NCBI GenBank assembly: GCA_036172245.1
Contig: JAYWIR010000006.1
Location: 4,836,001-4,900,000 of the forward strand
Direction: 5' to 3'
Length of the DNA: 64,000 nucleotides
DNA from: Raillietiella orientalis
Lineage: Eukaryota
A model generated the notes under the pieces. It made no database searches. It was not told where the DNA came from and saw only the letters and a list, made by a program, of their open reading frames with translations. Each line of letters begins with the position of its first letter. Position 1 is the stretch's first letter. Positions 1 through 19,410 of the stretch are shown here, one piece after another. The position numbers and the translations under genes are program-made.

Positions 1-429
1 GGGGTCGGATTTCCTGCGGAAGACGGCGGGGGGGTGAAGAAGGTACAGCTGCCGCATCCGTTCGTGGACGCCCGCGGCAGCTGTGCGGTCGCTCCGCAGG
101 GTTCTCTCTGGGGGCTGCCGAGGAGGGGACGACCCACGACTACTTCCCCGACCCAGGCAAGGAGCGTACAAACAGGGCCGCGCTCTCTTTAGACCCAGGA
201 TGATGGCACGACCAGTTTCTTCCCGGAAGTGGTCGCACCAGATCGTCCCTGAAGAGGATGGGAGGTCCTTCCGCGCCCTCGGCTCCTCCCCCTGCCTCCC
301 AGAGCCGGGCGGCCTCGCTCCCTGGGAATTCCCCGCCTCCGGGCTTCTCCGCAGCCCGCTCCAGGGAGTCAGCGCTCCGCGAAGCACCAAGAGGTGGAGG
401 CGTTTCGCGTTCCCGGGTCTCCTGTGTGC

Positions 430-1900
430 GGGCCGAGGAGCCAAAGGGGAGCCAGCAGCGCTAGCTGCATGTCGGACCGAGACCGGAAGTCCCCCAGCTG
501 GGCGACGGCGATGGCGAGTGGGTGCCATTCGCTCCTTCGCCATCCTGGCGGGAGGTCCGGGCTCCACTGCCACTCCCCTGGAAGAGGGACCGCTCGCTGC
601 CGAGCATCGGAGAACCCGTCGTGCCCTCCGAAGGAAGGGCCCACGCGCGACGCTCCCGTTCCACAAAACGGGAAGACGAAGGGATCGACTGCAGCTTCCC
701 GAATTCCTTTCCACATGAATTTTCACGTGCCCCCCTCCCCGTTCCCGTGGCCGGCGCTCTGCGCGATGTTGCCCTCCCTGCCGCTCCTGGACCGCATCCC
801 GCTTGCCTTTGCACGATGGGAAATCCTTTCGGGTTCCTCTGTCCCCTCTGCTTTCCTTCCAGCTTTCTTTCTTTTGTTGGTGAGCCAGCTGCTGAGGAAC
901 CGTCCACCCCTTCGGGGATGAGGGGAGAGGGCACAACGGAGCTCTTTAACGCTGACTGCGCCGCCCCAGGGTGCCTGTGGTAACTTCAAGTTGTAGGAGC
1001 GTCCCAGGAAGGGACCACCCTATGAATCCAGGAAGTGCTCCGGAAGGAGGGCTCCTTGTTCCTCCCATGCTTGGAAGGAGCCCCAGAAGGGAACCACCTC
1101 TTCCTTACTTCCATTTTCACAGCCGGGAGGGGGCCGCTTCTTCTTCGAGCGGAACCCGAGAAGGATGCGCTCCTGGTTTTTTCCTCTGAAGTGGATCCCG
1201 AAGGGACATTCACCTGTCCTTCTGACCCTCTGGAGAGGCAGCTCCCGAGGGAATGTCTCAACCAGCTCCATGGCACGGCCCCATTTTCACAGTCAGAGGG
1301 AAACCTCGAAGAGCTCCTTGGTTACAGGAAGGACCCCGGAGGGTCGACTTCCAATCCCGAGGCCAGGTCAGCAGGGCCGTCCGGGGTCTTCCACCAGTGC
1401 TGCCGCACCCGAGGCCAACCGAGGTGCCGACCAGCGTATCGTCTTGCGGGGGAAGATCGAAACCCACGACACACCCTCCCTTGCTCGACATCGACTTCTT
1501 CCTGCCCCTCGGGGAGATTTGAAGCCGCGACTCCCGGTGCCCTTCCCGGCAGTTTCCTCGCGGCAGCCGCTTCCAGTCGCCGCGGCATGCTGTCCGGGAA
1601 CGGCCGGCTCCGTTGATTCCCAGCTGCCTCGCGCGGAAGATGGCGGAAGAGTCTCCCCGGGGGGTCTCGGACGAGGGAATTCGCGGGACTCTTATTCGGA
1701 GAGAGGATAAATCGCCTCGGGCGTTCGACCCTTCGCGAGATTTCGGACTGGGCTCGCATTCCATGGGGAGGAAGCCCCTGCACCCCATTTGGATGCTAGG
1801 TCGCGGTCCCGCTCCCCCCCTCTCCTTCGCTGGAAGAGTCTGGAAACGCCACCTCGCTCTCATGCTCCCGTCTTCGCGCTCCTATCGGCTACGTCTTCTG
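430..1900 (+). mobile_element. Degenerate Ty3/Gypsy-like pol remnant (RT ~430-980, RNase H ~1640-1900), interrupted by repeat M
   Basis: Frameshifted motif echoes in Gypsy order: 'GRRRWRVGAIR' (DGxWRxCxDYR), 'EDEG..STAASRIPFHMNF' (EDxxKTAFxTPFGxYEF), 'LLDRIPLAFARWEILSG' (LxxLPFxFxYLDDIL). After the M insertion: 'SDEGIRGTLIRREDKSPRAFDPSRDF..HSMGRKPLHPIWML..FAGRV' (RNase H DASxxGIGxxL..PxAFxSR..YSxxEKE..YLxGR). Heavily decayed, so the call is motif-level only. Confidence 0.4.
985..1560 (-). repeat. Repeat M copy 1 (tRNA-headed dispersed repeat, SINE-like)
   Basis: Colinear with 8785-9500(-) and 15900-16640(+). Shared blocks (M sense): gtcgtgggtttc, cctcggttggcctcgggtgcggcagcactggtggaag, gtcgaccctccggggtcc, gagctggttga..ccctcgggag, ggattcatag..ctcctacaacttgaag. 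Degenerate B-box-like ggagtcgcggcttcaaatc at its 5' end. Confidence 0.75.
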
Positions 1901-3169
1901 GAGACCGGAGAGTCCGCGGGAAGGAAGGGGGTGGAAGTAGGATTTTTTTTCCGGGATCGGGATTGATGGATCTGAGTTCAGTTCAAGGACGCTGCGCTCA
2001 TCGAGCGCACACGCGTCCCGGAGGGGTCTTCCCGGCGAGTGATTTCCAGAAAAATGCGTCTTTCACGAACAGAGGAAGACGCGGTCTGGTCGCCGGGACT
2101 CCCGGATTCCGGAGCCGAAGGCCATTAAAAAATATGCTAAAAAAAATCGGGATCAGTTTCCTGTTTTTCGAAATGGTCCGGCTGCCGGGAGGCGGACAAG
2201 GTTATCCTTGTGGCGTGCCCGCGCGCCCCTGAGATGAATGGCGCGCGTCCAAATCATCGATCGCGGGCGCTGGAACGAACAGGTGGATGCCGAGCCCTGC
2301 ACAGCCCATTTCCGCTAGCGGGCAATAAAAACGGCTCTTCAGGGATGCCGTGGCTCCCCTCCGCAGCATTCTCATGCCGGGGATAGCGCGCCGCCCACCG
2401 GGAACGCGGGTAACTACCTCCCTTCTCCCCTCCCAGTCGTGGAATGAGGCGCGTAGCCGGTCGCAGGAAGGCGTCGGTCCGCCTCTCTGCCCTCCTCCGA
2501 GGGACGGGGCAGGAAGGAACGCTCCACCGACCAAGGCGCGCCCTCGCCGGGCTGGGTGCAGCAGACAGCGCCAGGCAAACCTTTCCGGCCCCGCCGAGGC
2601 ACTGGCAGCACAAGGAAGCTGCGAGAGCAAAGAGTCTGGTCTGGCGGCTCGTTTCTCTAGCAACCTTCCCTCCGACCGGGGTCTTCTGCTGTTCGTCAGT
2701 AGGAAGGTGAGGAAAGCGGGAAGAGATGCCGCGCCGCGGTTCTCCCTTCCTCCCCTTCTCTTCCTCCTCCTCCTCCTCGCGTAGCCAAAGGAGGCACCCG
2801 AGTGCCCTTCTCCCTTTCTCCTCCTTGGAATGTGCTGCGCTCGCGATTCCCGTAGGATCCTTGAGCCTTCCCCTTTTCCCCTGGCTTTCAACCCTGCCTC
2901 GATCTGCCCCTCGGTGATGTTTTCTCAGCTGCTAGGAGGCGTCCGACCTCGCCGCAGGGAGGGATTTCGGGCGCGTTAAAGGTCCGGCGCAGCGGCCGCT
3001 TGAATCGAAGCGCTGATCTCAGGAGACACCCTCCGGGGCTGGCGCTGGTGCCGGCACCGCCCTCCTTGGAGCGCCCTCGCCACTCTCAGAGTCACCAGGG
3101 TGCTTGGCCGTGCGTTGCCTCTTTGAGGCACCACCTCCAGCTTCCTTACTCCCCGTTGCCCTTCATCCG

Positions 3170-3785
3170 TAGGGAGAACATAGGGAGGAGACAATAAATA
3201 AATGAATAAAGACGGAAGGGAGGGGTAGGAGGTATTTAATTAAAGACGTTCCTTCCTTTCCGAAAGTGGCGCTGGACAGTAGCAACCTCCCTGGCGACTA
3301 TTGTGGAAGATGAGGCCACCTTGCTACTGTCCTCATGAGGGCTCCCACTGCCATGCTGGTGGCCCCCCTTCCGCTGCGAACCGTGACTCGAACGCATGGC
3401 AGGCCGTCATCACGGTGCGGATGCAACATGTCGTTACGATCGCAGCACCCTTCTTCAGCCCGTCTTCCGTGAATAAGCGTCTCAGCAAGTCCAAAGCGAG
3501 GGGTCCTGCGGTCGACAGAGAGTGGAAGGGAGTCTCCGCCACAAGTCGTCCGGTGCACTGCAGTCCAACAGGAGGTGCGGGAGCGCTTCCATCGCTCCGC
3601 ACCTCAAACAGTTCTGGGAGGCGGTTCCCCCGGAAACCAGGCGTCCGCGCTGATTGAACCGGAATCCCCGGTGCAGCAACAGAAGGACATCCCTTTTCTA
3701 CCAGAGCAAGAAGATGGAGGTGTCCACACACAGGGCAGGGACCAGTAGTTCTTTTGGTGGTCACACCAAGCAGGTCACGAAGCGA
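3170..3785 (-). mobile_element. L1/Tx1-like non-LTR retrotransposon, copy A (ORF2 C-terminus with zf-RVT, partial 3' UTR)
   Basis: Minus-strand peptide 'LLLHRGFRFNQRGRLVSGGTASQNCLRCGAMEALPHLLLDC' (CCHC zf-RVT), then 'RTVARWPHL', which matches the C-termini of copies B-D. A T-rich 3' UTR tract follows at ~3190-3215. The structured terminus is missing. Confidence 0.8.
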
Positions 3786-4798
3786 GCCCGGAGATGAGGC
3801 AGCGACTGCCGCCCTCCTTCTAGAACAACCGCTCTCTGCAGGACGTCATCGTGCAGTCCACCACGTGTGCGTGGGCGCAAACAACCTCCCTAGCCGGGAC
3901 ACTTTCCTCCCTCAGGGAGCATTTGGGCAGCAGCCAGCCGGCCAAATAGGAAGTCTGTTGTGAAATCTCGGACCGAGGGAAGGAACTAGATGCCTGGACC
4001 AAGGGCCAGCTCAGGGACGCTGAGACTCCAAGTGCTCCACCGAAGGGGCTATTGTACTGGGGTGAGCTGCTGGGAATCCTACAGGAAGACCTTGAGTGGC
4101 CCTCAGGGCTAAAGAACAAGCGGGCCCTCCCCCTGAAGTGGCAGGAGTTGGCACTCTTGTTGTTGTAATGGAGTATCCCGTAAAACGCCCGCCGGTCTCG
4201 CTGTACCCGGGGGGCTGTGGATCCGAACTGTGTCAGGTGCTGGGATAGTTACAGATAGCTCACACACCTGCTCGTAGACTTCGTTGCCCTCCGGGCCCTG
4301 TGGCTGCGTTACTCAACGGCCCTTGGTGCACCGACGGACGATCCCAGGGACGTGGCCCTTCCGCCCTGGCACATTCCCAGCAGCTCTTTGCTGCCTACGC
4401 GGGATTGGAGCAGCCTGGAGCTAGGCGAGGGGAGGATGGCGCGTTAGGGACGCCATCTGCTTCGCCCTGCGCTTTCTGTGGACGGCAGCAAGATGGCCCA
4501 GTTGGGGCATACCCGGAAGGAACTTGCTGGCATCCTGGAAAGGATGCAGAGGACGCCCTCCAGCTCCCAGTGATCTCTTCCCTAACGCTCCCAATTTTTT
4601 TTCTGTTTATATTACTTCGTTTTATTTTAATTCCTGTTTGCCCCCGCCCCCTTCCTTCGCTGCCGAGGCGGACCTCGCCGGCCTGCGTGCCGGTCACTCG
4701 GCAGGTTCCGAGCCTTTTCGGACAATGTAGGGCCGATGGCCCTACACCTCTATGTTTATTATTTTTATAATAAACGTCCTGGCTTGACCGGGTGATAA
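3785..4798 (+). mobile_element. L1/Tx1-like non-LTR retrotransposon, copy B (5'-truncated; ORF2 C-terminus plus complete structured 3' end)
   Basis: Plus-strand degenerate peptide 'RSLQDVIVQSTTCAWAQTTSLAGTLSSLREHL..YWGELLGILQEDLEWPSG..LPLKWQELALLLL..VDPNCVRC..LTHLLVD' aligns with copy C. It is followed by a T-rich tract, the hairpin module at 4660-4792 and the terminus gaccgggtgataa. Confidence 0.85.
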
Positions 4799-5979
4799 AC
4801 CAAGCAGGCCACTCCACCGAAGGAGCCCTTCCGCCCAGAAACGAGGAGTGGCGGCTAGAGGAGGTTATTCTGGTACCTCTGAAACTTCCGGGAAGGACAA
4901 GATCGATTTCCAGTGGTCCCAATTTCTCGGAGGTGAGGTCACTTGCCAGCTAATGCACGCGAGTCGAACGGAAAGGGTCGGAATTTTTGCCCTCGACCGT
5001 CGATGAGTCCGCATCGTTTGCACGCATGCGCAAGAGCAAGTGCTTCGGTGCGAATCCTCCTTGCAGATTAACACGCCTACCAGACGAAAAAGAGCTCCTG
5101 GTCTCGGAAGGTCGGTAAGAAAGCAAACCGTGGAATGAAAGAAAAAAAAAATGTTTATGCATTCTTCCCGGATGGCTTGGAAGATCGTTTCGCCCAAAAT
5201 GAGCGTCTTGCGATGACCCTCAAAAAACCCCGCTGGCGGACATCTTGAAGCGCCTCTTCGGAGGTGCGGCGCCTCCTGTCGCACCGATCACGACTCTTTG
5301 ATACTGCACGGCACGGCGTGGCGCCGAGCGAGGTCAGCAAGGATGGAACGCCTGCCATTCTCATGACGACTTCCTCCTTACAGGAGACAGTGGAACGCCT
5401 CCCCTCTTGGTTAGACGGTTGCAGGAACTTGTCTCCGTCCTTCACCGGAGTCATGGATTCCTTGACAACCGTCAGTTGACTTCCACCGCCACCACTCGCA
5501 CTATCCCCCATCCTCACCCACTTAGATGATCACGTCTTGTTTATCCTCTCTGTTTATTCGGCTGCTGCCTTTTCCCCCTACTTCCCGATGCAGTCTCCCC
5601 CCCCCCCCATGCCCGTCGCCTGGCATCTCCTGTATTATACGGATTGAGGCATTCTGTGTTCGGGCTCCTCCGGGTGCGAGGGGCGAGGTGAGACGGTCGC
5701 CGCATCAGCCTGCGGTTCGCGTCGCATGGTAGCTGCCCCGTCGAGTGCTCCTCTCACGGAGTGGGGCAACACCACCTACTCGCAGACACCATCCTCTTTG
5801 GGGTCGAAGAAAAGAGCCGCGTCTGCGTCCTAATGAATGGCAGGAGACGAGGTGAACCTCCGCGTTGCTCCCCCTCGAAGCCAAGCGCTGCAGGTCTCCT
5901 GCTGCTGGTTCCGAAACGTGGAGACGAATTTCCTGGAGCATCTAAGCGCATCCAGAAATCAAGAGGGCAACTTTTTTCT

Positions 5980-6007
5980 AGAGAGAGAGAATGAGAGAGA
6001 GAGAGAT
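5980..6007. repeat. (GA)n microsatellite, interrupted
   Basis: agagagagagaatgagagagagagaga. Confidence 0.8.
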
Positions 6008-6449
6008 TCTTGCCAATGCCCCTGGCACTCGGATGTTGCTCTGATGTGTGTCGTCCAGTAGTTCAGGGACGCACGAGAGACGGAGGGACATTGAATTTCG
6101 CGGAATCACACGAAAGGGCGCCGATGGCGTCCACGGCGAGCACGGGGGGAGCGAGAAAGAAGCAAAAAAAAAAAACAAAAGGACTTCTCACAGTCCGAAA
6201 AAGCGGGACCGGAAGAGACCGACCTGCCCGTGACGTTGGTTCATCTTCATTTTGCGAAGGGTGGCCGGCGAGCTGCTCTTCGTGACAGCGTGGATGGGAC
6301 CATCCCGACGTAATCCTGAGGAATCGGACGCGGAGAGGGTGGCATAGGCACCTCCGCACAAAGTAGGGAGCGTTCCCACGTGGGAACGCGTAAAAGAGGT
6401 CTCACGATGCCCTGATAGTAACGCATTGCACTTACAGTTGAAGTAAGGG

Positions 6450-7330
6450 GCGAGGTTCTTTTCCCCTCACGAGGCTCGCCTGTCCAGAGGCGGCGGCATG
6501 CACTGCACGTCTTCTACAGCCATGAGGCTGCAGAAGACGTGCGGACTGCGGTTGACCGCCCCGGCATCCTCCACACCCTCCGCAAGGAATTCCCTTTTGA
6601 GGGCCTTCTGATAAAGCAGGGGACTCCTGCCCAGCCGGCTGACAACCGCCGCCCTTATCCCACAAGGAGGGCAGCAGCGGCGCGGCGGAGGGCGTGACGG
6701 TGGCTGAGTGCCGGTTCTTTGGATCCGCAGGTCATCTTTCGGGGCTGAGGGAGCGGGTCGCCAAGTCGGTGCCCGCGATGCACACGCTCGGCTGACCACC
6801 GCATCAGTCTGAACTTCCTCACTTGCCGACGAGTCAGCAGCTCGCACCACCGCTCCTCCATGCACTGCTCTCGGTGCGCCCTGGAGGCGTGGGGGAGCCC
6901 CGCGATGATGCAGGCGCCGAGGGCTGACCGGTGGACGATGGCGTTTGCGGCCTCGCACCGTTCGTCAGTCTTCTCGTCCTGGCACCCGACTTGGTAGACG
7001 GTGGCAACCACAGCCTCATTCTGCAGCGTCAGGATCCACTTGGAGACGGGGGATCGGCAGGCTCCCTCAGGGCAGCAGCCTGCCTCAGCGACGGCCTGAG
7101 AGCCGTCCTTCCCGGTGTGGCCGCGTGGCGGCACGAGCGGGTGACACCCTCGCGACCGGCCGCGTACCCCTCAGGACGTCCAGCGAGGGAGTCAGCGGCC
7201 CTCTGTGCCCAGAATTTGCGAGAATGGAAGTAGGGACGGGAGTGCTGGTCTCGGAGGCGAGACAGCGGGACAGGTGCGGAGCGCCTTCCAGAGCGGACCC
7301 GAAGAGGACTGTGAAGACGGATGGGAGCGA
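6450..7330 (-). mobile_element. Degenerate AP-endonuclease-like region of a non-LTR ORF2
   Basis: Minus-strand motif echoes in APE order: 'PHLSRCLASET' (PDIxCLQET), 'GKDGSQAVA' (GxRGVA), 'LTLQNEAVVATVYQ' (xxVY), 'GACIIAG' (IIxGDFN), 'ALSHRHAL' (SDH). Catalytic residues are partly lost. Confidence 0.45.
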
Positions 7331-7499
7331 AGCAGTCGTACCTCCGGAAGCTCTGGAAGGCCAGAGCGGCTCCTGAGAGGCGGGAAGAGGCAGCAGCGCT
7401 GTCGCGGCTGGCGGGGGGGGGGGGAAGGGGGGGGCGAAAAAAGGAGTGCGCACACGCGCACACGCCTGCAGGGGATACGGGCACTAAAGGGCCGATGCG

Positions 7500-8720
7500 G
7501 AACTCTCTCAATCCCCTGATCCATCGGAGCGGGAGACCCCTGGCTTCGGTGTTCTCGGGAGACGCGCGACCGAGGGCTCCCCTCCTCCATTGGGGAACAG
7601 ACGGCTGCGCGCGGGGCGGAGGTCTCCGTACGGACGCGCTGGGATCGCTCTCTCTCGTGTGCGCCTCTCCCAGGGGGTCGTCTACTGCATGAATAAGCAA
7701 TGGCGCCTCGAGAGGCGAAGACGGGTCTGTTTCCAAATTGGACTGACTTCCCGAGCTGCTGAGTCCCCTCGCACCGACAGGCAGATCCGTCCCCCCTTGC
7801 AAATGAAGGGAGGGGAGTAAGGTGCCATGAGAGATGCCGCCGAGGAAGGGAATCTTCCACGGGACCGGGAGCTGCTCCCCTTCTCAGATCCCCTCTCCCC
7901 CCCCCGCCAGCGATACATCAAAGGGAGGCGGTGCGGAGGTGACTACGGGAAGCAGCGGAAGGGAACAATCAGCGTGCCACGCAGCGCGGCTTCCCATCGG
8001 ACGCCCATCGCGAGGAAGGGGAAGGAGAGGAGGAGGGGAAGAGCGTGTTGTTGCATAGCGATGAGGGGAACACGACCCTTCCACCACGAGCGCCCTGGAG
8101 GTGTTGCCGGCAGCGGCGAGGAGCTCTGCGGCTCTGCGCTTCGGGAAAAAAAAACAGTCTCCCGGTCGTTCCCAAATTTCTCCCCTCCTTCTCTCTCAGG
8201 ATCTCTCACTGGCAGCAGAAGCAGCGCCTCTATACCTGGCGCATCGAGGAGCTCCAGAGCCAGAACGGGGACTCCCTTCCCTTCTTCCCTCTTCTCCCGC
8301 ACCTCCCTCACCGGAGAGGGAAATTCACTTCCGGCCTGCCTCATCGCGCCTAGGAGGCGCTTCGCCGCGGGGCGACCCATTGCGCCGGATGCTCTCGAAT
8401 GCCTCCCTGACATCTGTTTTTCCGTGGTGCCTAGGGACCCCGCTCGCACAGCCGCTCCGAGGGAGTGACTGCTGCCCAGCTCCGGAAGGTGGGAAAGGGA
8501 CTTCCAGGACGCTGGCCCCAGGCTGAGAATGCGTCCCGAGAGCACCTTGCGGTGTGCCGCAGAGCGCCTCCTCGTTAGCCCAGAGATGTGGAGGTGGAAC
8601 ACCTTCAACTGGCCTCTTCCCTGACCTTTTCTTCTGGAGTCTTCATTGACAGATCCCGTTGAGACCTCTCCTCCGTGTCTTCCGTTCCTCGGGGTGCCCT
8701 TTTCCACCAAGTGCTCAGGA
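7500..8720 (+). mobile_element. Degenerate Ty3/Gypsy-like pol remnant (protease-like plus RT)
   Basis: In order: 'PLIHRSG..S' (LIDSG), 'PPRAPWRCCRQRRGALRLCASGKKN' (SPWxSPxxxVxKxDGxLRLCxDYRKLN), 'LSQDL..HWQ', 'HFRPASSRLGGAS..RRML' (FxxMPFGLxNA..QR), 'FQDAGPRL', 'TFNWPLP' (IxNWPxP), 'LPFLGV' (LRxFLG). Multiple frameshifts. Confidence 0.5.
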
Positions 8721-8784
8721 ACCTCTCTGCTGGGGGCTCGTGAAGCTCTCTGACACTGTCCTTGTCACCGGGGGCTGCTCACGA

Positions 8785-9500
8785 CCCTTCAAGCTACAGG
8801 AGGTGACCCAGGGAGACGACCACCACTATATGAATCCATCTCTTCTCTGGAATCCGGGAAGGATTCCGTTCCTCCTACGCTTGGGAGGGAAACTCCGAAG
8901 GGAACCGCCTCTTCCTCGTTCCCTCCGGAGAGACCTTCGGAGGAAGCCGCTCCTCGTTTCTTTCCTGGACCACTCGAACTCGCAAGGGAACCGCTCCTTG
9001 TTTCCTCCTCCGAAGAGAACCCCGAAAGCACTCTTCCCAGTTTCTCTGCAGGGAGCAACGCGCCTCTTGACACTCTGAAGGGGCAACTCCCGAGGGGGTG
9101 TCAACCAGCCCCAGGGTACTCTATGGAGCTGGTTGACCGAGGATTGTGGATGAGGGGTGAGAAGCCTAGCAAAAGGTGTCTTCCGGACCCAGGACGCCCT
9201 TGCGTCCCCTAAGAGGGGGGATAAGGGGGGCGATGGCTTCATTTGCACAACCATTTGATTCCTGGAGGAACCCCGAAGGGTCGAACCCCAATCCCGAAAG
9301 CCAGCCAGTGGGGGTTTCCGGCTTCCAATAGTGGCCGCACCCTGAGCCAACCGAGGGGCCAAGCAGCTCCATCCCGCGAAGGGTGATAGAAACCCACGAC
9401 GCAGTTTCCATTCTCGGTGTCTACTCTTCCCTTTCCTCCCCGGGCAGGATTCGAACCCGTGGCGCCCGATGCACGTCCTCAGGCTACCGCCGCCGCAGGC
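8785..9500 (-). repeat. Repeat M copy 2 (tRNA-headed dispersed repeat)
   Basis: Colinear with copy 1 from the head (cgggttcgaatcctgc, a B-box/T-arm-like motif at ~9442-9457) to ctcctgtagcttgaag. Three ~42-bp internal subrepeats at ~8897-9027. Confidence 0.8.
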
Positions 9501-9529
9501 CTTCAAGGCAATACCGCAGCTCTTCTGGC

Positions 9530-9694
9530 ACTCCAGGGAGGTAGCTCCCGAGGGGAAGGATCGACCAGCTCCATGGTATCCGTTCTCACAGCCTGAGTGA
9601 AACTTCGAAGGGCTCCTTGGTTCCTGGAGGGACCCCAAAGAATCGACTCCCAATCGCGGCCGGTCGACTGCGGCGTCCGGCTTCCACCATTGCT
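9530..9694 (-). repeat. Repeat M copy 3, downstream part (continues from 13612-13790)
   Basis: Minus strand agcaatggtggaagccggacg..gggagtcgattctttggggtccctccaggaaccaaggagcccttcgaag..ccatggagctggtcga..ccctcgggag aligns with M copy 1 starting at 'agcactggtggaag'. Confidence 0.7.
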
Positions 9695-9868
9695 CGAACT
9701 TAAAGACTTCTGCGCTGGGGCGTGTTACTGAATATTCCGGAGGAAGACTGCAGTAGTTCCAGGTGCTCATGAAGACCCGCATCCTCTCCTCGGAGTGGCG
9801 GGAGTCGGCGTTGATGCTGCTACACTGGAGTCCCCCGTGCAACTCCCGCTGGCATGGACACGAGGGCG

Positions 9869-12800
9869 TTCCCACCCGGTCACGCCGGGGCGTTTATTTC
9901 TAAACTCTGTACATTTGCGGTACGAGGCCCCGCTACGGCCAATAGATCGTGGAGCCTGCTGGGAAGCTGGTGCGCAGACCGGCTTGACTCTCCTCGGCAG
10001 CGGTGGGGATGGGGGAAAACAAAAATAAAAATAAAAGGGAAAACAAAAAAAAGAAACACTTGGGTGGGCCGGGAAGGGATCACTGTCCGCTGGAGGAAGA
10101 GACCATCCTCTTCAGGATGCCCTCGAGGTCCCTCTGCATAGCTCTCAGATGGGACCATCCGATCGCGATTCGCAGGTAATGACCCGCATGTATGATGGGG
10201 TCCCTATCGCTGCTTCCTCTGTTGGCTGCGCTCCACGCAGCCACAATCCCCCGGAGGCAGCAGAGCGCTGCCAGGGCTGAGGCTGGTTGCAGGGCGTCTC
10301 ACATGAAGAGGAGTCGCACAACGTCTCTGGGGGGACTGCCAACCGGCATCCGGAGGGTCGTAGCAGAACGTTCTCACAAGGGCCGGAGGGCAGCGCAGTT
10401 CACTAACAGATGGGGGAAAGATTCCTTCTCCCCGCACACTGCACAGTTCTGTCCCACGTTCCCCAACGTCCAGTGGTGGCGGCGCGCGTTGCAGGGAAGA
10501 CCCCAATGCAACAACAGCAGCGCCGTTTCCTGCCACTTGAGGGGAGGGTGGATGCATCTCTAAATAACGAGGACCACTTTAGGTCATCCACCGGGATGCC
10601 AAGCAGCTCGCCCACCTCTGGATTCCTCGCGGGAGAACGCTTGGGGCCGCGGCGTCAGCCAGTTCCCTCATGGTCCACCCACTTAGATCCTTCTTCTTGC
10701 CCGCATTCCGGCAGGTGACTTGCCACCTCGGTTTCCGGCTGTTATGAAGCGCTCTTCTCAGGAAGGGCAGCGCCGTGGCCAGTGGGGTCGTCTCCGCAAA
10801 AGTGCTTCTGGCGGGACACACGATCATGTTCCGCAGCGTGCAGCGGGTGTAGATGCCGGTACGCAGACGGTTGCAGGATTCTCCACTGAGGTCGTTTAAC
10901 TTTGCCCACGTTTCAACTGTTTCTTCCAGCCATGCGCTGGAGTTGGCGGGGCTGCAGGCCATCCACCCGTTCTCCTTTTCCAGGGTGGCCATGCGTCCTG
11001 GGAGAAGGCCGCATCTTCTTATTTTCCGGCCAAGGCACAGAAGAAAAGACGCGAGTCCTTCAGTCCCTGGCACACGTCTGGCGAGAAGGCGGTCCGGAAC
11101 GCACCAAGGGGTGCTCCACATCTTCGCCGCAATGGCTGGGGTATGACACCGCAGCTGTGTTTCCATTCGCTCCATCGTCAGGACGCTAAGACCTCCGGTC
11201 CCAACATGGAGCGCACAAATCCTCCAGAGGTACACGAGGCCTCCCGCCGCCCCACAGGGCGATGCGCAGGAGGTCCTTCGTTCTCTTTTTCATCTCACGG
11301 GGTACGGGGCAAACAAAAAGCAGGGGGCGAAGGAGGGGGGCTGCGAACGCGTTCCACACCGCGGCCCGTTCCGGCAAGTGAAACTTGCCTCCCAGGAACG
11401 GGCCGATAGCCGACTCCACTTTCTGACGAATACCTGACCAGGCTTCGGACTGGCAGAAGTCCCCGAACGGAACGCCAAGGTACTTTAAGTACCTCTCCTT
11501 GGGAATCCCCAGGCGGATCCAGTCAGGTCATCCTGCCCACCTCACGTTGCACCAGCCGCTACTACCGACGACTTGTTCCTGTTCACCCGTAGTCCTGTCC
11601 TGCGGCTCAGCAGGTCGAAGAAATCCTCGACTGCCAAAGCCGGGGCGGACATGAGCAGCAGGAGCAGAAGATCGTCAGCATACGCCGACGTGGCCGGCGG
11701 CACGAGCTCAGCAAGGCAGCCAAAGTCACCCTGTATGCACTCAGCACCAGTTCGAAATAGGTGCTAAAGAGCAGGGGACTCAGGCTGCACAGACTTCCAA
11801 TAGGCCGCGCGGATCCGACGGCGACAGGCGAGCCCAGGTGCTAACGCTGGGAAATCGGCGTTGCGGCGTCCGTCACCTGTTGGGGCTGGACGCTAGGAGG
11901 TGAAGGGGGGGGTGCTTCAAGCACCTGGTCCCCCTCCTCCATGGGTGCCGACGCGTCAGGCGGGTCGCCCGATGGTGGGGTCTCGCCCCCCTGCTCACCC
12001 TCCGCCATGGGTGTCGCCTATTTTCCGGCTTTCGAGCGTGGGAGATCCCCCTCAGGGGTTACCTCGCTCACGTCAGCTTCCGGCTTCTCCTCCTCGCTGG
12101 TTGACTGGAGGCGCCTCCTAGGATTCTGGGAGTTGCGTCCCGCTTTCCGTGGGGGTGCCCCCGCGGAGGAGGATGAACTTCTGGTCCCCAGGTCAGACTC
12201 ACCTGCCTACGGAACCTTCCTCGCGGCCGGCCTTCACAAGGTCTTTCGCGAGTTTTTCTCACGGCCTTGTAGTTCGGCCGCGAGTTCTTCCGCCGCCTGC
12301 TGGAAGGCGGCCTCCTCGAGCGCGTCGCGCAGTTCCCCCTCTGTTTCCCCAGAGGGTTTGCCATCCACCGTCGCGGCTTCGGCGGACGCGAGGGGGGGGA
12401 TTGCTTCCCCGGTGGCGGCATCGAGTGCCTCCACACACTCTGAAGCCACCGAACACGTGCGGAGTTTTTAGCGGCACGGTTTTTCGCGCGGCGTTTTTTT
12501 CTCCGCGTTTCGTTCGTGACTTTTCTCAACCGACGTTTGCTGGGAGGATTTAGGGACTGGCTTCTGGCTTTTTACAGCCTTTGCCTGTTTTAAGGCATTC
12601 TCTTCTCCCGCTCGAAATAGGTGCTAAAGAGCAGGGGACTCAGGCTGTCGCCCTGCCGGATGCCGCGCCTTACCGGCACGCCGAACACGTTCTGTCCTCT
12701 GAAAAAAACGGTGATGATCGCATTGCGCCAGCAGGCACGCAGGTAGGTCGTTAAGGCGTCCGGGAAGCCCATGAGATCCAGGAGCTCCAAAAGGAGTTTC

Positions 12801-12985
12801 TGGTCCACGCAATCGAACGCTTTGTGCAGATCGACTGCGATCGCTAGAACCCCCTTCCCTCCCTGGTTGTCCCTTACTTGCCGCGCTAACGCCCCCAAAT
12901 CAGGGTTGCCGACATTCCGTCTTTCCTTCTTTTCTTGGTGTTGCACATGGAACCATGTGCTGGCGAAGAACAGGCTCCAAGGACA
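9869..12985 (-). mobile_element. L1/Tx1-like non-LTR retrotransposon, copy C (RT to 3' end), interrupted by an 824-bp insertion
   Basis: RT motifs 'AIAVDLHKAFDCVD', 'RRGIRQGDSLSPLLFSTYFE', 'SAYADDLLLLL', 'TGLRVNRNKS', 'YLKYLGVPFG', then 'GGLSV' and zf-RVT 'NCAVCGEKESFPHLLVNC'. C-terminus 'GWSHLRAMQRDLEGILKRM', T-rich tract, structured end aaataaacgccccggcgtgaccgggtgggaa. Frameshifts and stops indicate it is inactive. Confidence 0.92.
11788..12611 (-). mobile_element. 824-bp insertion flanked by a perfect 36-bp direct repeat; low-complexity ORF1-like content
   Basis: tcgaaataggtgctaaagagcaggggactcaggctg occurs at 11752-11787 and 12612-12647. Removing the insert and one repeat rejoins the RT. 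The insert reads on (-) as a charged, disordered peptide with stops (ELRDALEEAAFQQAAEELAAELQG..STSEEEKPEADVSEVTPEGD). The ORF1 assignment is inference. Confidence 0.75.
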
Positions 12986-13611
12986 AGGGAGCGAGTGGAT
13001 CCAAACTGTGCCAGGAGCGGGAGCGGGGGTCCTCCCGCACCTCCTAGTAGACTGTCTTGCCCTCCAGGCCCTTTAGGGACGCTTTGACACGATCCTTGGA
13101 ACCCCCGGTGGCAATGCGAGAAACGTTTTAAAGTGCCTCTTTCTGCGAGACGCCCTCATGCCGGCCGCATCCCCAGCAGCACTTTGCTGCCCACGCGGAG
13201 GGATCGTGGCTTCATGGAGCATCGTCAGAAGAGGCCAGGACGACAGAAACGCCATTTATTTTGCTGTCCTCTTCATGAGGACAGCATCAAGATGGCCCCA
13301 TCTGGGAGTCTTGAAGCAGGAACTTGCCGGCATCCTTATAAGGATGCAGAGGACGCCCTCCAGCACACAGTGATCCCTTCCCAACCCAACTCCCACTCCA
13401 TTTTTCTGAGTGTATGTTTTTTGCTTTATTTTATTTTATTTTTTGTCTCCTCTTTCCCTGTGCTGCCGAAGCGAACCCTGCTGACCCGCATGCCACTTCC
13501 CGGAAGGCTTCTCCTCCTCGTAGTTGTAACTAACGTAGCAGCATCAAACGTCCTGCCACGTATGTGGGTGTTTATTTTATAAATAAACACCCCGTTGTGG
13601 CCGGGTGTCAA
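12985..13611 (+). mobile_element. L1/Tx1-like non-LTR retrotransposon, copy D (5'-truncated; zf-RVT to 3' end)
   Basis: 'VDPNCAR..VLPHLLVDCLALQAL*..AALCC..GIVASWS..RTASRWPHLGVLKQELAGILIRMQRTPSSTQ*', T-rich tract, hairpin gggtgtttattt-tat-aaataaacaccc (13566-13592), terminus ggccgggtgtcaa. Confidence 0.88.
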
Positions 13612-13790
13612 TTAGTACCGCCGCACCCGAGTAGACCAACCATCGCCATCCTGAGGAGAGACCCGAGCATCCACGATGCAGTCCCCGGTCTCGGCTTTCA
13701 ACCTTCCCCCCAGGCGGTATTCGAACCCGCGACTCCTGGCCAAACAAAAGGCCGCAGCCTACGCAGACCCTTTTGCTTGACCCCATTTGG
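13612..13790 (-). repeat. Repeat M copy 3, tRNA-like head and upstream part
   Basis: Minus strand ggagtcgcgggttcgaataccgcctggggg (B-box/T-arm-like, gcgg/ccgc stem), then gcatcgtggatgctc, then ggttggtctactcgggtgcggcggtact. It ends where the 9694 segment begins. Confidence 0.65.
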
Positions 13791-13799
13791 AAATCTTGT

Positions 13800-15400
13800 C
13801 CACGGACCAATTCCTCCTCGTCCCTTGCAAACGGCAACAACGGGAAGCAGCTCATCTGAACGCGCCCTTCGCCTTGACCTTAGGTCGGCGTATAGCAGCG
13901 TTCCAGTCGCTCCTACGAGACAGCGGGATCATCGCGGTGGGAGACTGCGGTCCAGGTGTTCTCCGCTCCTGAGTTCCTGTCCTCTCTAACTGGAACGGGG
14001 ACGCGGTTCCCAGATTCCCCAGCTACTGTTCTTCCCTCCCTGAGGCATTTGTCCTCCCTGCATCCGAAATTCCGCTCCTCCATCTCCGATGTGCTCTGCT
14101 AGTTCCCCGGCCCCGGATGGACACCCAAATTAAACTGACCTCGCCTTACCTTCCCTCACTTGCTTAACGGTTCGTGACTCTGACGGCTTCCTCCGATGTA
14201 ATGCGACACCCCTCAAGGGTTTCTTGTTCTCTGAAGCGTACTGTTCTGTTCTCTGATCTCTGATGACCATTCCGGAAGAAGAAACTGCCACCTCCTGCAA
14301 ACTGCTGCAAAGGGTAGGCGGTGCTCTGGAATGCGTCTCTGAATATCCGCCGGCTCCTGAGGAATCATCCATCCAGTGAGGTGCCTAAGAGGTGGGATGT
14401 TTTCCTTCTTCCTCCTCTGGCACCTCCGACCCCGTCAAAGGACGCACTCGGAACGCGTCTCAGGAAGGATCTGCTGCCAAACTCTTCTCATCTATGCCAT
14501 CCGGAATCCTCTCGTGCACCTCCTTTCCGCTCTTTCATGCCCCTCCCCTACATCCAGGGGCACATCCGATCTATTCTCCTGCTTGGGGTGAGGACCCCTG
14601 TGCTCTTGTAGAACAGAGTCCCTGCTCTTCCGGGACATCGAGGACAACTCTTTCAAGAGTCCACCACCCACCTGCTGCTGCGAGCCCCTTCGCGGCCTGC
14701 CGACCGCAGGCCAACCCCCGGCAACCCCATCCGTTGCTGCATTCCTGAAGCGGTCCGGGATGTGGAGAATCATCAGAAATCCAGCGCCTTCCAATACGAG
14801 CTTCCGCTTCCGAAGCGCGGGGCTTTCCTTTCGGGAATTGATTCCATCCCCTTTCCCATCCCCTTCCTTTTTGCTTGATCAGGATCCGCCTCCCTTGACG
14901 GCATCGATCGATCCCGTCTCTGAGGATCGCAGGGATGCAGAACCTTATTTTCGTGGGTTCACCGCGTGACTCGCGAGGCCAGTGCGGTCCTCTTTTCTTG
15001 GCTGAATCTGCGAACCTCCATGCTACCCCACATCCTTCGCCTTGAACCCGATTTCCTCCTCTACGTCTTACCTTCAAGAAAAAAGAATCTGCAACAGCTG
15101 TTTTGGATTTTCCTCGGTCTCCCTTCTCCAAACTCTTCCGTTTTCGTAATCTTTCGGTTTTTCAGCTTCACTGGAGAAAAGGAAAAGGGAAGACTTCCTG
15201 TTGCACCAAGTCTGAAAAACACCGCGGCCTCAAGATGCTTCCTCCCTGAAGCTTTGCATGATTCATTTTGATTCTGGAGTGACTTCCAGACCAGCAAAAG
15301 GAGTCCTCCGGACCCAGTACGCAGGCTTGAGTTATTTGGTCCATAACCAAATGACTCGAAGTCTCTCCCTCTCTCAAGAAGAATCGCATTCCTCCTCCAG
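13800..15400 (+). mobile_element. Degenerate Ty3/Gypsy-like pol remnant (RT-RNase H-integrase)
   Basis: In Gypsy order: 'LRLDLRSAYSSVPVAP' (KLDLRSAYHQIPV), 'SISDVLC' (YIDDVL), 'TSDP/SKDALGTRL' (TDASxxALGAVL), 'LPYIQG', 'LDGIDRS..PYFRGF..PVRS' (IN Zn region), 'VLDF/LGLPS', 'VFVIF..SFT', 'IHFDSG' (IxSDxG). Many frameshifts. Confidence 0.55.
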
Positions 15401-15899
15401 AGCCTGAGGGTTCACCGTCTTCGACTTCCGCAAACACTTCCGTAGGGAAACTTTTACTCCCGGACTGCAGGGAGCCCTGTAGAAGCGATGGGATGTGTCT
15501 GTTAGGAGGAGCTTCAGAAGATGGCCTGTCGAGATCCAAAAAGACAGAAAGAAAGAAGGAAAGAAAATGCATCCGCGAGAGTGACTTCGGACGCAGGAAT
15601 CCTGCTGATGATGACGGCGGCCAAATGACCAAGCATCGTACACGATCGACAGTACCGAAAGGGTCGTCCTAGATCTCGAAGCAAATCTCTCACGGGAACG
15701 AGGAATGAGTTTTGGGACCCGGGCTTACCTACTCGGAGTTTCCCGCTACAAACTAGTGCTCACTCAGGTCTGCCAGGTTTCACCTCATTCATCCTCGCCT
15801 CTCTCTTTCTGCACCTGAGTACCTGGGTCTTCTTGCCGGTCTGTCCGTCTGCCTCCCTGTTTATCCTGCTGGAGTGAGAATTACAGTAAATAAGGCGAT

Positions 15900-16640
15900 G
15901 GCTTCCCGTCATGGGATTCGAGTCCCCTCTCCCACTCGGGACGACGTTGGATGATCGCTCGGTTGGCTTCCCCCTTCCCCTGTGCTGCCGAGACAATCCC
16001 GCTGGTCTGAGTACCAGATTCCGGCAGGTTTCTTGTATTTATAAGAAAAGTGGCAGGATAAAACGTCCTGCCACAGACTTGTAAGTTTATTTTAAATAAA
16101 TGCCCCGGTAGACCAGGAGTCAACCCCTCGGGACGACTCTGGATGCCTACTGGGTTGGTTTCGGATGCGGCACTGGTGGAAACTCGATGTCCCCGTTGAC
16201 CCTCCGGGGTCCTCCCAGGAACACTACAGGACACTACAGGGTTCCCCTCCGGTTGTGAGGATGGAGCCGTACCGTGGGGCTGGTTGATGTGTCCCTCGGG
16301 AGTTGCTTCTCCGGACTATCAGAACCACTCTGCTCCCTTCGAAGAGAGCCCTTCAATGACATGTGGAAGCATCCCTTTGGGGTTCTCTTCGGAGGAGGAA
16401 ACAAGAAGTGGCTCCTTTGAGGGTTGCATCCGGAGAAGAAACGAGAAGTGGCCTCCTGCCTTCCGGGGGATCCTTCCGGAGAGGAAAAGGAAGAGGTAGT
16501 TCTCTTCAGAGACATCCAGGGCGCGAGGGTTTCCTCCCAAGCGTCAAGAGGAACGGATTCCTTTCTCCGTAGCCTTCCTGGATTCCGATGAAGAAATGAA
16601 TTCATCCCCTCTCGGGATACCCCCTATCTCGAAGAGTTAC
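15900..16640 (+). repeat. Repeat M copy 4, interrupted by retrotransposon fragment E
   Basis: gtcatgggattcgagtccc, gggttggtttcggatgcggcactggtggaaac, gttgaccctccggggtcc, gggctggttga..ccctcgggagttgc, ggggttctcttcggaggaggaaacaag; colinear with copies 1 and 2. Confidence 0.8.
15971..16123 (+). mobile_element. Copy E: 153-bp 3'-terminal fragment of the L1/Tx1-like element with ~39-bp degenerate target-site duplication
   Basis: Matches the ends of B/C/D (ccctgtgctgccgag..cggcagg..aaacgtcctgccac..gtttattttaaataaa..cccggtagaccaggagtcaa). Flanks 15932-15970 and 16124-16162 are 30/39 identical. Confidence 0.75.
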
Positions 16641-19410
16641 GCTCACCCTCGGGTGGCGTGGAATAGTACTACGAAGGAGCTTCATGAGTCGCTAAGCGAA
16701 CAGCGAAACAGAAAAAAACCCAAGAGGATTTCGATCAATTTTAACCTGGCTTAAAAGATTGGATAACCCGTAATGGGTTTTAGCATTCGAATGTGGTAAG
16801 CATTTCAAACCTATATAAGTCAGGAAAAGAATGATGAGATCAGAGGGGCATCATGCCCCATTTCATGATTGCGAGCTCCGAGCAGCACTACATTATGAGT
16901 ATTTCGTGGATTCGGAAACACTGTGTCTTCTATTAGATCACAACAGTACTGCGTGTACCCAACCACAGTCCTTAATTCGCATATGTAAAAAGTACTAATA
17001 CAGATACACAGTCGATTGCAAAAATAACGTATACCTTGCTACCTTGGACGAAATTACGAATTTAAAACGACTATCTGACTGGAGAAGCCATATCTGCACA
17101 CGTCAGACCGCATTTGATTTTTCCTACAAAAAAAAACAACGTCTTTCTAGTTTTGGTGCTTTGCAATTTAGTGTTTCGCATAATTAACTAAATAGATTCA
17201 ACCACAAGGAAGGCACACGAGATTTAGACTCGATGTGAAGTGCAACAGTTTGATAATGTGCATTCTGATTTACCGTGTAAGTAAAATTCTCAATGGAAAA
17301 GCAAATATCAGCAGAAATGGAGATTAAGAAGGTAAAGAAATTAAAATGAGTAAGAAGTGTATTTTTAAGTAATCTGAATTCAGAATGGTCAGCTGAATTC
17401 TGTGAACTCTTTGAAAAGTCTAAAATTTCAGTCTAAACACGAAAAGTTCATAGAAAATTAGTAATTTGTATTTTTAACATTGGTAATATATAAACTGAAG
17501 CTGGTAAAAATTTGCACTCACAGATGATTCATTATTTTTTGTTCATCCTAAATTGTTCTTCTAGGCTTTTTGATTATACCTAGTATAGTGTCTCTGGAAA
17601 TGGGAAGATGCTTTCGAAATATGAAAATCCCTTCATCGTTCCCGACTTATAGGTTTGAACATCCCGTGAACTTTAACAGATGGCTAGTATGGCTCAATCC
17701 TTGCCCCCTACTGCAACGTTACAATAGTCTTCAGAGAAAATATCGAGCATGACGACAACAAAAATTCAACCTGTCATGTAACTTTTGCAATTAGCTGATA
17801 TCTGCATGAAGTTTCGGTGTCAATTGCAAATCTGGGACGTATTGTGTGCTCCTGGCTTCCCATCATGTTTCGATAAGGAGAGTGAACCTTCACTAGCATG
17901 TTGGGAATCCGATTTTCTGACGAGAGTTTTTATGGTTCTGGAGGCCCCGTTTTATCATCTGGCACCCATGTTGTAAACATTGGCCGATTGTCATTTTTTG
18001 CATGCACTGAAGGAATGATTTTGGTTTTCGTTTAGTTTCAAATTTGTTCACACCATGCGTTGGAAAACGGCTCTTTGAAACCTTTTGCTTCATCCCCTGC
18101 CTGGAATCGTAATGAAGGAAAAGAAATGCGGGAATGCCTTTATCAGCTGCTTTCCCAAGTTGCAGGTATCGAAATCAATTCACTGTCTGAGTTTCAGAGA
18201 AGGACGAAAGTGAAACACTTAAAAAGCTGCCGAGGGACGTTGACTGTGAAATTGCAAAAAGTGACAAGTTTCCGAATCGGGAAAGCTTCTGCGGATAGTA
18301 GAAATGTTTCTTTGTTTGCCATTTGGAAAATTTGTCATTCGTTTGTACTTTGTTCGTGACGTGACTTAATTTTTCATTAAGGGTAGCCGAATTCAAGGTA
18401 TCGTAAACGTGGATGGACTCTGTAAATAATTGATGCACCTGCATCAAATAAATTGCCGTTTATTTAAATCGGGGAAAATTTTTCGAAAGCTTATTATTAA
18501 ATTCCTTGTAATGTGTTTTGAGAAAAAGTGATGCCCACTCTTCGATTTCCCCCCATTTTCAGTGCGTTCCTTTATTCTGGCAGACGAATCGGATTATTAA
18601 ATAATTTTTTGGTTAATTTGCAAATTCGTAAAATAGAGGAATATAAACTACCGAGACTTGGTGTTTGTGTTTTCACATAAATGTGTAGATATTGCATGCG
18701 ATCCCAGTTGGTATTCCAAATTCCTGTTAGAACAGCAAGAAGCTCAATTATCAATAGTCTGCTTATGTCAATATTCTTAGCAATTACAAAAGTGCCTGTT
18801 TAATCGCTTGCTAGTACAAAATTTGAAGCACCGAATAAATTCCCCATCATTAGATGAAGTGTAAAGTTTTTGTTAGCAAGCATCATGTGTTTGTTTGTTA
18901 AACTTGTAGATAACATTGGACTTTCCCACTGTACATACATATTAGTATCAAAATTAAAAGCAATTTTTAAAGCCCGGAATGTAAGCAATAACATTCATGG
19001 AAATATTTTGAGTTTAATTCTTGCCTAGCATCAAAATGAGAATTATTTTTAGTTTTTGTTGATTTGAATTTGAATGCTTTTCTTTTTCTGATCCTGTGCC
19101 TACGATACAAAATTATTTTCAGCCATATTTTTTGCTGCTTTCTACCTTTATTTTGCATTAGTTTAATAATGATTATGCATGTGCAGGTGAAAATGAAAGA
19201 ACAACAAAATTTATTTAATGCATTACTTTACATGGAAATCAAAGGAGATACAGTGTAAATGGATTCCGGAGTGAATCCAAAAATTGTTTTTCTGTTCCTC
19301 TGTGATCATTGTATTTATAACCATCTAAAGCAAATATTTTATAAGCAAGTGAATGGAGCATTTTTCATTCAGATTTATGTAAACATGTAAACAGATTTGA
19401 AGAAGGTGTT

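Follow-up and report, generated by a model that had tools for sequence, protein, structure and literature searches.

Introduction

Stringent-type recognition of a 3′ stem-loop has been documented for many long interspersed nuclear elements (LINEs), L1-clade lineages included (PMC3472496), and is also treated in PMC4176376. For the monocot L1 lineage 1a (LINE1-1_ZM), Ohshima (2012) described a conserved 3′ hairpin in which the stem is variable and the loop and flank are conserved, reported compensatory changes in the conserved 3′ hairpins of L1-clade lineages, and proposed that the ancestral state of the L1 clade was 'stringent' (PMC3472496). The same study noted a green-algal L1 (Chlamydomonas L1-1_CR) that has its tail in common with a short interspersed nuclear element (SINE), and listed L1 families without a 3′ repeat, namely 5 of 15 in green algae and 9 of 233 in flowering plants (PMC3472496). 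The present analysis concerns a 64,000-nt stretch of the Raillietiella orientalis genome (GenBank assembly GCA_036172245.1, contig JAYWIR010000006.1, positions 4,836,001 to 4,900,000 of the forward strand; hereafter the window), in which four truncated copies of a non-long-terminal-repeat (non-LTR) retrotransposon share a hairpin-rich 3′ end. It had originally been predicted, from the sequence alone, that this element ends in a covarying five-hairpin RNA module instead of poly(A), on the premise that L1-clade elements normally end in poly(A) and that a structured 3′ end would be out of place among them. This premise fails, because L1 lineages with a conserved 3′ hairpin had already been described by Ohshima (PMC3472496).

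Compared by description, the element resembles LINE1-1_ZM and L1-1_CR in combining an L1-like reverse transcriptase (RT) with a conserved, hairpin-forming 3′-terminal region (PMC3472496). The tails of those elements are ~45–80 nt long with one hairpin, whereas the module found here spans ~140 nt and five stems; L1-1_CR ends in poly(A), which the element here does not; and partner SINEs are known for those L1 tails, while none was found here within the 64-kb window (PMC3472496). Since its RT is only 26–30% identical to the nearest database relatives (one partial protein, P0001, aside), the element represents a different lineage from those L1 elements. In UnaL2 (eel) and ZfL2 (zebrafish), a stem-loop of the 3′ tail is the feature recognised by ORF2p, and reverse transcription begins at a defined 3′ end instead of within poly(A) (PMC4176376). 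These L2-clade elements carry short terminal tandem repeats (TGTAA in UnaL2), whereas the element here has no terminal repeat and, unlike UnaL2 and ZfL2 as presented there, has an AATAAA 23–24 nt from its end. The 3′ untranslated regions (3′UTRs) of non-mammalian vertebrate L1s likewise contain pyrimidine/T-rich tracts and a canonical AATAAA at the end, as described by Boissinot and Sookdeo (2016; PMC5381506). Vertebrate L1s end in poly(A) (PMC5381506), whereas here a target-site duplication (TSD) adjoins a tail-less end and, unlike in those L1s, the T-rich tract is separated from the end by the hairpin module. SART1, a site-specific element of the R1 clade, keeps and needs poly(A), according to a passage that cites it in PMC3472496; the element here has no A-tail.

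Results

A common terminal module in four copies of the element

Self-BLAST revealed four 5′-truncated copies of one non-LTR retrotransposon, designated B, C, D and E, which have a common 3′ end (aligned extents 3803–4794 (+) for B, 10869–9873 (−) for C, 12995–13607 (+) for D and 15971–16123 (+) for E) and are 61–69% identical in pairwise comparison. The copies are ~2300 nt (C), 1020 nt (B), 617 nt (D) and 153 nt (E) long, and their limits were assigned as follows.

3779–4798, plus strand: copy B, 5′-truncated, an ORF2 C-terminal remnant and 3′UTR, placed by self-BLAST against C and D, the tblastn frame and the TSD bounds
9869–11787, minus strand: copy C, 3′ part, with RT motifs, a CCHC-like knuckle, the stop codon, the 3′UTR and a decayed tail at 9869–10003
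12612–12990, minus strand: copy C, 5′ part, an RVT_1 fragment whose 5′ limit is approximate
12995–13611, plus strand: copy D, 5′-truncated, with its tail at 13463–13611
15971–16123, plus strand: copy E, a 153-nt insertion of the tail module only, preceded by 14 nt from the tract upstream of it

The terminal module common to B, C, D and E is ~140 nt long, and in copy B it is composed of five predicted hairpins, H1 to H5.

4660–4704, plus strand: H1, with an outer helix at 4660–4667/4697–4704 (ctgccgag/ctcggcag) and an inner helix at 4678–4682/4689–4693 (ccggc/gccgg) closed by the loop CTGCGT
4707–4722, plus strand: H2, 6 bp (one G.U pair), loop CCTT
4726–4746, plus strand: H3, a perfect 9-bp helix, loop GAT
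4754–4775, plus strand: H4, a 9-bp A/U hairpin with AATAAA at 4769–4774 in its 3′ arm
4778–4798, plus strand: H5 and terminus, CCTGG-N5-CCGGG at 4778–4792, then the terminal TGATAA, with 24 nt separating AATAAA from the element end

The stems quoted in the original prediction were all found in their places in B, C, D and E. RNAalifold, applied to all four copies, recovered H1; its counterpart in E has ctgccg/cggcag as the outer helix and ctggt-ctgagt-accag as the inner one, and the inner stem of C pairs gccggt with accagc, with one C.A mismatch. H4 of D is a perfect 12-bp AU stem (13566–13592), and in B, C and D the predicted H4 holds the AATAAA in paired form; H4 is absent from the minimum free energy (MFE) fold of E. 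Over H2–H4, identity between B and E is as low as 59%. Nevertheless, H2 of E (tttcttgt/ataagaaa, 8 bp with one G.U pair) and H3 of E (gtggcagga/tcctgccac, a 10-bp hairpin whose inner sequence is unlike that of B) have other sequences at the same offsets as in B (H2 at 2 in B and 1 in E, H3 at 21 and 22), and the two helices are near-perfect in both copies, with 6 and 9 bp in B and 8 and 10 bp in E. The predicted folds show that B and E keep H2 and H3 although the sequences of these helices differ.

The exact 3′ terminus and the AATAAA signal

The ends of copies B and E could be fixed by their TSDs, those of E lying inside a repeat family here called X.

3765–3778, plus strand: left TSD of B, ACCAAGCAGGTCAC, a 13/14 match to 4799–4812, at the homology boundary
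4799–4812, plus strand: right TSD of B, adjoining the element end ...GGGTGATAA
15932–15970, plus strand: left TSD of E, inside repeat X, a 31/39 match to 16124–16162
16124–16162, plus strand: right TSD of E, adjoining ...GAGTCAA

The flanks of B read ACCAAGCAGG[T/C]CAC, and both are placed exactly at homology boundaries. For copy E, the repeat X copy at 1290–1500 (X1) contains the TSD segment once and uninterrupted, and thus constitutes a paralogous empty site; another X copy, at 9560–9760 (minus strand), aligns to the E site only from further downstream. No TSD was found for C or D. The 3′ ends read ...GGGTGATAA (TGATAA) in B, ...GAGTCAA in E, ...GTCAA in D and ...GGGAA in C, so that all four end in AA, and the termini of B and E follow the pattern ...GGGTG(A/T)(T/C)AA. 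No A-run was present within 20 nt past the end in any of the four copies. Because the TSDs directly adjoin the ends of B (...GATAA) and E (...GTCAA), the element terminates without an A-tail, as had been predicted; the exact 3′ terminus and the absence of the tail are thereby established, and the poly(A) ending typical of 'relaxed' L1-clade members was not encountered here.

The AATAAA is invariant in 4/4 copies, while neighbouring columns of the alignment vary, and it lies 24, 24, 24 and 23 nt from the element end across the four copies. A distance of 23–24 nt is the usual one between a polyadenylation signal and the cleavage site. The two TSD pairs have diverged to different degrees, by 1/14 positions in B and 8/39 in E, which suggests that B is fairly young and E older. 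If B is fairly young, its perfect stems would reflect the source element and need no special explanation.

Folding stability and covariation

Folding of the whole tails gave z-scores, relative to 200 dinucleotide shuffles, of −4.67 for B, +0.61 for C, −3.71 for D and −3.84 for E. The claim that the hairpins are more than chance was thus borne out for B, D and E, which are unusually stable, and failed for C. Local background was estimated from 234 non-overlapping 145-nt windows of positions 1–17000 on both strands (mean z −0.64, standard deviation 1.35), among which 8 of 234 reached z ≤ −3.7, and the tails made up four of these eight. For the H2–H4 segment, z was −6.88 in B, −5.80 in E, +0.14 in C and −1.13 in D, the value for D being an underestimate in which the segment cut removed part of the 12-bp H4; in B and E, 0/300 shuffles were as stable. 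These values uphold the predicted retention of position and pairing of H2 and H3 with other sequence in B versus E. The gap between the five-hairpin model and the MFE stayed within 3–4 kcal/mol for B (−58.6 vs −62.9 kcal/mol) and for E (−43.2 vs −46.3 kcal/mol), and not for C or D.

Covariation was tested on the 23 alignable pairs (H1 outer and inner, outer H3, and H5) of the four related sequences. Paired cells amounted to 90.2% versus 87.4% after shuffling (21/500 shuffles reached the observed value), the covariation score was 0.312 versus 0.232 (17/500), and pairs changed on both sides numbered 4 versus 2.5 (85/500). Of the two swaps in H1, one turns the CCGG of the 5′ arm into CTGG and that of the 3′ arm into CCAG, the two products expected of CpG deamination, which happen to pair with each other. 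The second replaces C-G by T-A where the loop closes, and does not fall on a CpG. CpG observed/expected is 0.59–0.83 in the copies, a mild depletion, vs 1.03 in the rest of the window. The description of the module as covarying is therefore weakly supported, with 17–21 of 500 shuffles reaching the observed score and pairing and one swap possibly due to CpG decay. A better argument for a maintained structure than the formal covariation is that B and E carry different stems in the places of H2 and H3.

Apart from the tails, windows with z ≤ −3.8 were observed at 10441–10585 (+), 12181–12325 (both strands) and 15226–15370 (+), representing unexplained local structure or palindromes.

Identity of the element

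Upstream of the module, the coding remnant and the first part of the 3′UTR could be delimited.

4571–4573, plus strand: ORF2 stop codon TGA, preceded by ...ELAGILERMQRTPSSSQ; frame and stop are kept in B, C and D
4574–4659, plus strand: pyrimidine/T-rich first part of the 3′UTR, aligned in B, C and D

Comparison of the copies by tblastn showed that the conserved frame is the one ending with the TGA at 4571–4573. When the 99 open reading frames (ORFs) of at least 90 aa in the first 17.5 kb were scanned against Pfam, the only one passing its cut-off contained an RVT_1 domain at 12593–13072 (−) (E 1.8e-8, 34.7 bits vs a cut-off of 29.6). Read through its stops, copy C contains the RT motifs LSPLLFSTYFE, YADD and YLG distributed over three frames, followed by a CxxC-x7-H-x4-C knuckle that is partly present in B and D; the match of this knuckle to zf-RVT is weak (E 0.015, 16.4 bits, cut-off 27.5). 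The RT fragment of copy C is 65% identical to the database protein P0001 (619 aa, partial), along which the frames of copy C follow in collinear order. Everything else in a set of 5.8 billion proteins is at most 30% identical to P0001, and its nearest relatives (26–30%), from ticks, frogs, fishes, plants and others, combine Exo_endo_phos (PF03372), RVT_1 and zf-RVT. The best match of P0001 among solved structures was human L1 ORF2p (E 7e-40), with R2 at E 7e-17, and an Atlas neighbour (score 0.88) is named Tx1. All copies in the window are cut off before the endonuclease region.

The RT fragment, the motifs matching P0001, the common 3′ end and the TSDs identify the element as a non-LTR retrotransposon, in agreement with the prediction. 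On the strength of the RVT_1 domain, the domains of the P0001 relatives and L1 ORF2p as the best solved match, membership of the L1/Tx1 group is suggested by similarity to relatives. Judging from the protein matches, the lineage of the element is barely sampled in public protein sets.

The two parts of copy C are joined by a perfect 36/36 direct repeat (12647–12612 / 11787–11752), and therefore the RT fragment belongs to the same copy as the rest of C, from which an insertion of 824 nt separates it. Twin priming had been considered as the origin of the inverted RT fragment beside D, and was rejected because the fragment is continuous with copy C across the 36-bp duplication. The insertion itself (11788–12611), inside the RT region of C, looks very recent, apparently with an unusually long TSD (36 bp; that of E is 39 bp). 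It contains an open frame on the minus strand that starts with ATG; neither a Pfam match, nor a match elsewhere in the window, nor poly(A), nor a hairpin tail was found for it.

Searches for known RNAs and related tails

No Rfam family matched at its gathering score anywhere in the 64-kb window. When positions 1–17500 were searched with E up to 10, 14 matches were obtained, none of which overlapped a tail (best E 1.2), and the statement that no known ribozyme is recognisable in the tails holds for this search. Rfam contains an R2 element family; R2, a site-specific element of another clade, has a 3′UTR with several helices. ARAGORN found no transfer RNA (tRNA) or transfer-messenger RNA (tmRNA).

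A covariance model built from the four tails and run over the 64 kb with filters off recovered only B, C, D and E, at 119–145 bits, with the next match at 8.7 bits. A fifth tail at 1450–2350 (−), proposed for a short resemblance to the terminal motif in an alignment, was rejected, no tail being present there on reading or by the covariance model. Scanning with P0001 gave 7 loci in the metagenome collection, all of them distant (22–61% best-segment identity over short stretches) and without the contig of P0001 itself, 1 distant locus (26%) in the genome contig collection and 0 loci in the viral contig collection. When these 8 distant loci and 12 viral stretches matching a three-anchor tail pattern were compared with the tail model, none of them matched it, the best score being 9.5 bits (E 0.62).

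Repeat X and the genomic setting

Repeat family X is represented at 1073–1601 (−), 8830–9119 (−), 9255–9694 (−) and 15908–16605 (+), by copies that are ~66–75% identical. Copy E sits inside one X copy, and copy C has two or three X copies after it, oriented as C is. Insertion into X is seen for E only, the X copies after C not being at the same site. X starts with a motif resembling a tRNA T-arm (GGGATTCGAGTCCCC / GGGTTTCGATCTTCCCCC), and no tRNA was called there by ARAGORN or Rfam. As a candidate partner SINE, X was rejected because its copies lack the tail. At 13690–13730 (+), ~90 nt downstream of D, the stretch ggcggtattcgaacccgc resembles a reverse-complemented tRNA T-arm, and could thus represent a further relic of tRNA origin close to the end of a LINE.

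Decayed repeats make up a GC-rich block (54–64% GC) over the initial 17 kb of the window. Composition breaks sharply at its edge, with 59% GC and a CpG observed/expected of 0.83 over 1–17000, and 44% GC and 1.03 over 17001–64000; a GC trough of 34% lies at 18–20 kb. Pieces of host genes occur at 20065–21439 (+) and 24244–24942 (−). Two host ORFs have weak WD40-repeat matches below the Pfam cut-offs, and a host ORF of 233 aa has a YHS domain and matches FAP206 and Dpy-30 weakly; the proteins closest to it are long flagellar-type adenylate kinases of chytrid fungi (27–31% identity).

Discussion

On balance, we lean towards the explanation that the module forms the last ~140 nt of the 3′UTR of an L1-like LINE of the apurinic/apyrimidinic endonuclease (APE) type, with an RNA end built as a series of hairpins that fold independently, and is recognised as a stringent-type tail. 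The element's own AAUAAA, in the 3′ arm of H4, would set the RNA end 23–24 nt downstream, at ...CAA or ...UAA; ORF2p would recognise the structured tail in the manner of stringent-type LINEs, a behaviour known from most LINE clades, and would start target-primed reverse transcription at that very end, giving DNA copies without an A-tail. Among stringent-type LINEs, the L2-clade elements UnaL2 and ZfL2 were reportedly treated by Kajikawa and Okada in 2002. Binding of the hairpins by ORF2p, cleavage at AAUAAA+24 and the start site of reverse transcription are steps that we infer. Copy E shows that 153 nt holding only the tail module is enough for insertion.

Several observations weigh against recognition of the module by ORF2p. 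The copies are only four, old and broken, and the common layout that had been claimed for them holds at the level of the module and not for every stem: H2 and H3 of C are mostly decayed and C has no excess structure (z +0.61), and in D the inner stem of H1 is broken, H3 keeps 7/9 pairs and the middle segment is weak (z −1.13, with part of H4 cut off). H1 alone (z −1.8 to +0.4, −1.24 in B) and H5 with the end (z −1.2 to −0.1) behave like shuffles. The covariation on alignable pairs of four related sequences is not significant, and one of the H1 swaps could be attributed to CpG decay. The antisense strand folds about as stably as the sense strand, so that folding alone cannot point to the sense RNA as the functional strand, and the covariance model found no partner SINE with this tail within the 64-kb window. 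Much of this would be expected if the hairpins were functionless, that is, if they were chance or mutational palindromes in a GC-rich and A/T-rich 3′UTR, alike through common descent. The covariation result, the missing stems of C and part of D, the ordinary stability of H1 and H5, the equal folding of the antisense strand and the four non-tail windows of the region at z ≤ −3.7 all fit such an origin, and template switching is a mutational process able to yield short palindromes. We still regard it as improbable: near-perfect stems of 6–10 bp occupy the same two offsets with different sequences in B and E, where none of 300 shuffles was as stable, the tails are four of the eight most structured windows among 234, and neutral decay is expected to destroy stems, not to replace them. 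The about equal predicted folding of both strands would also suit stems that act as DNA, for example by priming or positioning second-strand synthesis on the first-strand cDNA. This seems to us very improbable, as the G.U pairs of the sense-strand stems (2 in B, 4 in E) become A.C mismatches in the complementary strand, and we know of no precedent for such action in LINEs of this type.

There is a limited, though appreciable, chance that the module serves 3′-end processing or stability of the RNA and not RT recognition, with H4 presenting or masking the AAUAAA. H5 would then lie between the signal and the cleavage site, the terminal hairpins would protect a poorly adenylated or non-adenylated transcript, and the missing A-tail would follow from a short or absent RNA tail. 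The invariance of the AATAAA at a fixed 23–24 nt from the end in 4/4 copies, its paired state in B, C and D, where it is part of the predicted H4, and the position of the end at CAA in D and E are all in line with a processing role. That role leaves unexplained why H2 and H3, which lie at a distance from the signal, persist despite their altered sequence, and how reverse transcription comes to start at an exact end, and H4 is missing from the MFE fold of E. A comparable arrangement is the HIV-1 poly(A) hairpin, which contains an AAUAAA, can modulate the use of this signal and serves to suppress its 5′ copy in the repeated R region; HIV-1 being a retrovirus, its likeness to the AATAAA-bearing H4 is an analogy only. 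Processing and RT recognition are compatible with each other, and we would entertain, as a speculative and rather doubtful extension, that an isolated L1-superfamily lineage joins 3′-end processing and template recognition in one five-hairpin tail, making poly(A) dispensable. The tail would then end exactly at the cleavage site, and ORF2p would use the final A, or the final two, for priming. If this were true, the architecture would be one that is undescribed for L1-like elements, and it would possibly lie near the ancestral 'stringent' state of the clade.

Returning to the module as a stringent-type tail, what is distinct here is the longer five-stem module, the AATAAA that lies within a hairpin and keeps a constant spacing to an end without a tail, and the isolated RT lineage. 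At present, the finding amounts to a commonplace trait of LINEs, carried by four dead copies. If confirmed, it would add a structured, tail-less 3′ end in an L1-like lineage that belongs to neither plants nor green algae, and copy E would offer a compact 153-nt unit for studying the template choice of L1-type ORF2p. It would also bear on the question raised in PMC3472496, whether specific template recognition was ancestral in the L1 clade and was later relaxed.

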